DNA of 64,000 nucleotides. Origin: Escherichia phage a48. The stretch lies in the sequence record OQ067375.1; one strand, written 5' to 3'. The translations under genes and the position numbers were made by a program. The notes beneath the pieces were generated by a model. It was not told where the DNA came from, ran no database searches, and worked only from the letters and a program-made list of their open reading frames with translations. Positions 49,248 to 49,706 of the stretch are shown piece after piece (position 1 is the stretch's first letter; each line of letters starts with the position of its first letter).

Positions 49248-49706
49248 TTATTTTAAATCATCTGCCCAATCGAGTTTAAGAGGCTCTTTGTATTCACGGT
49301 CAAGTACAACCGGAATTTGTACATCACCGCTAAATGATAAGGGCCCAACATTATAAGACAATGTTATATGCGGTGTGTAATCATCAAAATCGTGTGTAGC
49401 ACCTAGTGCCCGCGCATACATGTGTCGACAGCGCAGATATTCAGAATCTAGCACAAGTACAAGAGTCGATCCATCTTGTGTTTTCCACACTTCTAAATGT
49501 CCAGAAGAAGCTACTTCAAAACTTCCACTCGATGGAACATATGGAACATTTACTCTCGAATAACATATGGTCGAATGAATTTTTTCTCTAGGAACTGGAT
49601 TAGGAACACGTAAAGAGCGCTGGAGTTCTTCCAGCGCGTCAAGTGTTAATTCTGAAAACTTAGCTGCTACATAAAGACCCGTTGAAAAGTCTTTAAATTC
49701 CATCAT
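49248..49706 (-). CDS. 57B: 57B protein (Acb1-type cyclic-nucleotide phosphodiesterase, anti-CBASS)
   Basis: 152-aa ORF directly upstream of 57A, as T4 gene 57B. Confidence 0.8.

Follow-up and report, generated by a model that had tools for sequence, protein, structure and literature searches.

The open reading frame at positions 49,248 to 49,706 on the minus strand of the window is almost certainly acb1 (gene 57B) of a T4-like phage (Tequatrovirus), predicted to encode a 2H-phosphoesterase that cleaves the cyclic di- and trinucleotides of CBASS. By the window we mean the whole stretch of DNA analysed here, 64,000 nucleotides from sequence record OQ067375.1 (Escherichia phage a48). The identification, which had been proposed in an earlier sequence-only reading, is correct; the gene is already known and characterised in T4, and it adds no new biology. 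As far as the sequence goes, nothing speaks against identity as Acb1. The coordinates of the gene and of the features that bear on its expression are collected in Table 1.

Table 1. Location of acb1 and associated features in the window
Feature	Coordinates	Strand	Basis and remarks
acb1 (gene 57B) CDS	49248..49706	-	ORF; T4 identity; Pfam PF23474; PDB 7t26/7t27; nine named residues
Gene 57A (tail-fibre chaperone), 76 aa	49703..49933	-	PHROG tail fiber chaperone; 97% identical to T4 gp57A
Gene 1 (dNMP kinase), 241 aa	49933..50658	-	100% identical to T4 gp1
Putative counterpart of T4 middle promoter P57A	50168..50193	-	MotA box TTTGCTTTA, 11-nt spacer, TAAATT; pattern scan
Putative counterpart of T4 middle promoter P1	50682..50709	-	MotA box AATGCTTCA, 11-nt spacer, TATAAT; gene 3 / gene 1 intergenic
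TATAAATA late-promoter-type motif (candidate)	50289..50296	-	Within gene 1; 363 nt before the 57A start codon; same offset in T4
PeSL-type cassette	49193..49263	-	Begins at the 57B stop codon; repeat family D1, three copies; identical in T4
acb2 (vs.4), cyclic-nucleotide sponge	38250-38513	-	Protein 100% identical to T4

Identity of the open reading frame

The ORF listing of the window contains an ATG-initiated frame of 152 aa plus stop at exactly the coordinates and length that had been claimed. When the window was shuffled 100 times, ATG-initiated ORFs of at least 152 aa arose at a mean of 0.02 per shuffle, so that a frame of this length is unlikely to be present by chance. The ORF starts ATGATG, and the first ATG overlaps the TGA stop codon of 57A (ATGA). 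The predicted protein is identical to T4 57B (NP_049750.1) at 152 of 152 positions, C-terminus included, which bears out its proposed equivalence to T4 gene 57B; furthermore, NP_049750.1 is the accession to which Hobbs et al. (2022) gave the name Acb1, so the proposed product, the Acb1 phosphodiesterase, stands as well. At the DNA level the two genes differ at 10 nucleotides, all of them synonymous, although synonymous changes make up just 23% of the possible single changes in 57B (chance of 10 out of 10, ~4e-7). As all ten changes from T4 in 57B are synonymous, its reading frame is under purifying selection. Three plus-strand ORFs within the same interval (61, 47 and 38 aa) were rejected as being without support, the all-synonymous pattern being accounted for by the minus-strand frame. 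An Rfam scan of the whole window returned tRNAs only, with no match overlapping the 57B ORF.

Homologues of 57B were found by tblastn in 1485 phage records, 445 of them at 99% identity or more. Most GenBank and RefSeq phage records, as well as phrog_755, the PHROGs family into which the window protein falls, name the product 'RNA ligase' or 'hypothetical protein', and few say phosphodiesterase. The database labels for 57B lag behind its 2022 characterisation.

Family membership and active site

The window protein scores 202.7 bits (cut-off 27) on the Pfam family for the anti-CBASS protein Acb1 (PF23474), and its residues 9-150 cover the entire profile (positions 1-144 of 144). In a search of the PDB it matched the Acb1 chains 7t26/7t27 (E=4e-62; 68% identity, 96 of the 142 aligned residues) and more weakly a second Acb1 entry, 9q2g. 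From the ~68% identity to these solved structures we infer that the window protein would adopt the compact 2H-phosphoesterase fold. Residues were then compared in an alignment of nine homologues from other Straboviridae loci together with the 7T26 chain. The catalytic HxT/HxT tetrad is present (H44-S-T46 and H113-I-T115), as are the base-stacking residues Y12, W74, F107 and W147 and the adenine-reading E141, so that all nine residues named by Hobbs et al. 2022 are found at their named positions. The lid, residues 145-152, is also present and the C-terminus is the same as that of T4. Among the nine homologues, Y12, H44, T46, H113 and T115 are invariant down to 40% identity. Thus, upon alignment to T4 57B and inspection of the catalytic residues, which the sequence-only reading had put forward as a check, we found an identical protein and a complete tetrad, with neither low similarity to T4 57B nor loss of a catalytic residue.

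Published activity of Acb1 and proposed mechanism

The function of the T4 protein has been established experimentally. Activity-guided fractionation led to T4 57B as a cGAMP-degrading enzyme; the protein, NP_049750.1, degrades 3'3'-cGAMP and was named Acb1 (Hobbs et al. 2022, Nature 605:522, PMC9117128). Crystal structures of Acb1 from Erwinia phage FBB1 revealed a 2H-phosphoesterase fold. The ligand is covered by a lid made up of residues 145-152, its bases are stacked against Y12, W74, F107 and W147, and the adenine N6 is recognised by E141; no metal is required for the reaction, in which the tetrad of H44, T46, H113 and T115 cuts on the 3' side of adenosine via a cyclic-phosphate intermediate (PMC9117128). 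T4 Acb1 carrying H44A/H113A is inactive, and the enzyme cleaves neither cA4 nor the 2'-5' bond of 3'2'-cGAMP (PMC9117128). In vivo, T4 delta-acb1 shows a >300-fold defect on CBASS hosts only, growing normally without CBASS (PMC9117128), and in a transposon screen acb1 was conditionally essential on a CBASS host and non-essential on K-12.

Hydrolysis of adenosine-containing cyclic di- and trinucleotides by the window protein is carried over from this work on the identical T4 protein. In the mechanism that we propose, Acb1 would act as a small, metal-independent 2H-phosphoesterase: the aromatic residues would stack on the bases while the C-terminal lid shuts over the ligand, and the HxT/HxT tetrad would cut on the 3' side of adenosine, with a 2',3'-cyclic phosphate as the intermediate. 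In this way the messenger of CBASS would be linearised before it activates the cell-killing effector.

Several known proteins can be set beside that of the window. T4 Acb1 is the closest: not only is the protein identical, but T4 also has the same flanking genes (3, 1 and 57A), the same overlap of the 57B start with the 57A stop codon, and identical sequences for P1, P57A and the 3' stem-loop/promoter cassette. The window differs from T4 in the ten synonymous changes in 57B, in a 57A shorter by 4 aa and in the region downstream of 57B, where T4 has ipI and the window has two other internal-protein-type genes. FBB1 Acb1 (7T26/7T27) belongs to the same family and shares both HxT motifs, Y12, E141 and W147 with the window protein, but differs from it by one extra residue after position 80 and by F at the position of W74, and its phage infects another host genus. 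Apyc1 (anti-Pycsar, MBL fold), the poxvirus poxin and the ring nuclease AcrIII-1 share with Acb1 the strategy of destroying the messenger, although their folds and chemistry are unrelated to it; unlike Acb1, the MBL enzyme Apyc1 depends on Zn and acts on cyclic mononucleotides, and AcrIII-1 targets cA4, which Acb1 cannot cleave. Acb2 (T4 vs.4) is an anti-CBASS protein like Acb1, but the two proteins are unrelated, and Acb2 sequesters the signals without hydrolysis. A counterpart of Acb2 is encoded elsewhere in the window (Table 1), which therefore carries both Acb1 and Acb2.

Alternative functions

The database label raises the alternative that 57B is a LigT-type 2',5' RNA ligase or RNA-repair enzyme acting on broken tRNA or mRNA. 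The phrog_755 annotation has been copied by many phage records, 57B and LigT belong to a common 2H phosphoesterase fold class, and the gene lies ~1.7 kb from the tRNA cluster. However, the match to the corresponding Pfam family, PF13563 (2_5_RNA_ligase2), extends over residues 81-123 only and reaches 13 bits (E=0.11) against a cut-off of 27, which leaves the protein outside that family; the label is older than the 2022 characterisation; and experiments on the T4 protein, which is identical, established it as a cyclic-oligonucleotide phosphodiesterase, with robust cleavage of cGAMP reported. The normal growth of T4 delta-acb1 without CBASS also argues against a role as an RNA ligase. With LigT below threshold in Pfam and the published biochemistry contradicting it, we rejected this reading, which we regard as very improbable. 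The position of the gene raises a further alternative, namely that 57B assists the chaperone gp57A in tail-fibre assembly, as the ATGA overlap and the conservation of the 57A-57B adjacency across Straboviridae genera might suggest. Such a role is hardly credible given that 57B contains the full cyclic-nucleotide active site, that it was dispensable on K-12 in the transposon library and that T4 delta-acb1 plates like wild type in the absence of CBASS (reported indirectly, as equal plating).

A third possibility concerns the targets of Acb1: the enzyme may act mainly on other cA3-based pathways such as type III CRISPR cA3 signalling, or it may be a net liability to the phage through the sensing of decoy nucleotides by Panoptes. 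The substrates of Acb1 include cAAA, and evasion of type III CRISPR was raised as a possibility by Hobbs et al. (PMC9117128). Furthermore, type II Panoptes restricts Tevenvirinae with an intact acb1, and escapers mutate or inactivate the gene; plasmid-expressed Acb1 lowers colony formation in combination with type I Panoptes. On the other hand, type I Panoptes defence is unchanged by T4 delta-acb1, its trigger in T4 being acb2 and not acb1, and the direct in vivo evidence concerns CBASS. The strong purifying selection on acb1 and its wide retention, with homologues in 1485 phage records, likewise speak against this reading. It extends the mechanism proposed above and is not a true alternative to it, and we consider it unlikely. 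Degradation of CBASS signals is the function that we assign to the window gene.

Gene neighbourhood

The window is from a Tequatrovirus, a relative of T4 and not T4 itself, as judged from nucleotide comparisons: its best 25-kb match is 97.5% identical and its best 5-kb match ~98.6-98.9%. On the minus strand the gene order is gene 2, gene 3, gene 1, 57A, 57B, two internal-protein-type genes, trna.4, trna.3, trna.2 and the tRNA cluster. The order 3-1-57A-57B on one strand is that by which a 57B orthologue is recognised from its position, and it is kept in Mosigvirus, Jiaodavirus, Bragavirus, Krischvirus, Lazarusvirus, a Vibrio phage and Pseudotevenvirus; the genes after 57B vary among these seven Straboviridae genera. 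It had been claimed that 57B lies upstream of 57A. Both genes are on the minus strand, so 57B, at the lower plus-strand coordinates, is immediately downstream of 57A, the two overlapping by ATGA. The description of the gene as sitting among internal-protein-like genes holds on its downstream side (48917-49174 and 48607-48840) but not on the other, where 57A, gene 1 and gene 3 are found. Upstream of the pair, the TAA stop codon of gene 1 overlaps the 57A ATG, and gene 1 contains both the P57A counterpart and the TATAAATA motif.

Compared with T4, 57A of the window is shortened by an in-frame deletion of 12 nt close to the acidic C-terminus (ADEE for ADEAKDEE), giving a protein of 76 instead of 80 aa. 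Three minus-strand ORFs of the window (48917-49174, 48607-48840 and 40116-40589) have a capsid-targeting-type N-terminus, MKT[YF]xEF. None is orthologous to T4 ipI, ipII or ipIII: they are 27-28% identical to IPI and have no full-length match to ipII or ipIII. Two different ip-type genes (phrog_3499 and phrog_8111) replace T4 ipI in the window.

Transcription and translation of 57B

Sites resembling promoters were given weight only where they coincide with experimentally mapped T4 promoters. The MotA-box pattern has 8 matches in the window against 0.97 in shuffles, and two of the sites are the counterparts of the T4 middle promoters P57A and P1 listed in Table 1. The P57A counterpart has the same sequence as positions 74909-74884 of the T4 record, with a predicted start near 50161, ~230 nt upstream of the 57A ATG; the P1 counterpart has that of T4 positions 75425-75398. 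In T4 the mapped starts are at 74877 for P57A (PMC2988021, Table 1) and 75393 for P1 (PMC2988021), and the positions of the T4 MotA-box sites fit these mapped starts of the two MotA-dependent promoters. From the sequence identity with T4 we infer that the window phage would use both. The TATAAATA motif is not enriched in the window (12 found, 10.4 expected from shuffles) and so is weak evidence alone; we treat it as a candidate late promoter only. Sites resembling sigma-70 promoters were not enriched either (15 in the window, 15.9 expected from shuffles), and a terminator scan gave one terminator-like site, inside gene 1.

An early counter-defence role, with early promoters nearby, had been put forward for 57B. 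A search for an early promoter upstream of the gene gave no candidate; the elements of early type are located on its downstream side. Because these sites come after the 57B stop codon, they cannot drive 57B, and what lies upstream are the P1 and P57A middle-promoter counterparts. Published timing points the same way: a transcriptome compilation gives the 57B/acb1 and vs.4/acb2 transcripts as predominantly middle/late, and in lysates of T4-infected cells cGAMP-cleaving activity is seen from ~15 min (PMC9117128). Together, the middle-promoter counterparts and the published timing argue for a middle/late function of 57B and against the early one proposed.

Based on these observations, 57B would be the last cistron of a tightly packed gene 1 - 57A - 57B unit transcribed from the MotA-dependent P1 and P57A and possibly also from a late promoter. 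There is no strong Shine-Dalgarno sequence before the 57B ATG, and the ATGA overlap suggests translational coupling, by which 57B would probably be translated following 57A. Acb1 would then accumulate by ~15 min, when CBASS is triggered; activation of the CBASS CD-NTase by the gp21 prohead protease has been observed from 14 min. We speculate that the 57A-57B overlap and the middle and possible late promoters form a dosage and timing device that ties Acb1 to morphogenesis and lets it peak as gp21 triggers CBASS (~14-15 min), with the hairpin of the downstream cassette defining and stabilising the 3' end of the transcript. We hold this idea tentatively and think it somewhat doubtful; if true, it would refine the regulation of a known system and would not amount to a new one.

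The cassette downstream of 57B

The early-type elements belong to a cassette of ~70 nt, present in three minus-strand copies (49263-49193, 48932-48862 and 48634-48564) that bracket the two internal-protein genes. Each copy combines an early-promoter-like sequence, GTTTACA-17-TACTAT, with a hairpin of 13-14 bp across the spacer and the -10, and the early-promoter-like sites at 49234..49206 and 48903..48875 (minus strand) face the internal-protein genes. The 13-bp hairpin directly after 57B (49196-49225) has a predicted dG of -17.4 kcal/mol (z = -3.9), and the other two have -18.1 and -19.5 kcal/mol (z = -4.2 and -3.4). Changes in the stem among the copies are compensatory (GAUGAGG/CCUCAUC vs GAUAGGG/CCCUAUC). 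These features fit the published description of PeSLs, mobile regulatory cassettes of the hyperplastic regions of T4-type phages that consist of TTTACW-N17-TAYWAT and a stem-loop (PMC4122927). The 1-57A-57B transcript may have its 3' end at the hairpin at 49196-49225.

Other features of the window

The tRNA region (46122-47577, minus strand) has nine tRNA genes compared with eight in T4. The extra gene, at 46913-46999, is a tRNA-Tyr(GTA) that scores weakly in Rfam (30.3 bits), and the tRNA with a CAT anticodon was called Met by ARAGORN, its T4 counterpart being annotated as Ile. A homologue of the homing endonuclease gene segB (94.6% identical) is found at 46204-46866. Upstream of the cluster, a MotA-box site at 47647-47673 (minus strand) is identical to the T4 site that matches the mapped middle promoter PtRNAE, whose start in T4 is at 72593 (PMC2988021). 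Divergence from T4 is mosaic: on the minus strand trna.3 (47968-48363) is 64%, tk.4 (36100-36564) 58% and denV (40605-41015) 77% identical, whereas the neighbours trna.4, regB, vs.3, vs.4, gp1 and gp3 are 100% identical. In the window denV lies right next to e (41015/41078), at the place taken by ipII and ipIII in T4, and is followed by an ip-like gene of 157 aa.

Implications

The identification of 57B can be used in mending the 'RNA ligase' and 'hypothetical protein' labels in RefSeq, PHROGs and other records, and in the prediction of host range. With an intact Acb1 and with Acb2 in addition, the phage is predicted to be resistant to many CBASS systems whose signals are cyclic di- and trinucleotides that contain adenosine and are 3'-5'-linked. 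On the basis of recent work, sensitivity to guard systems that make use of decoy nucleotides, such as type II Panoptes, is predicted as well.
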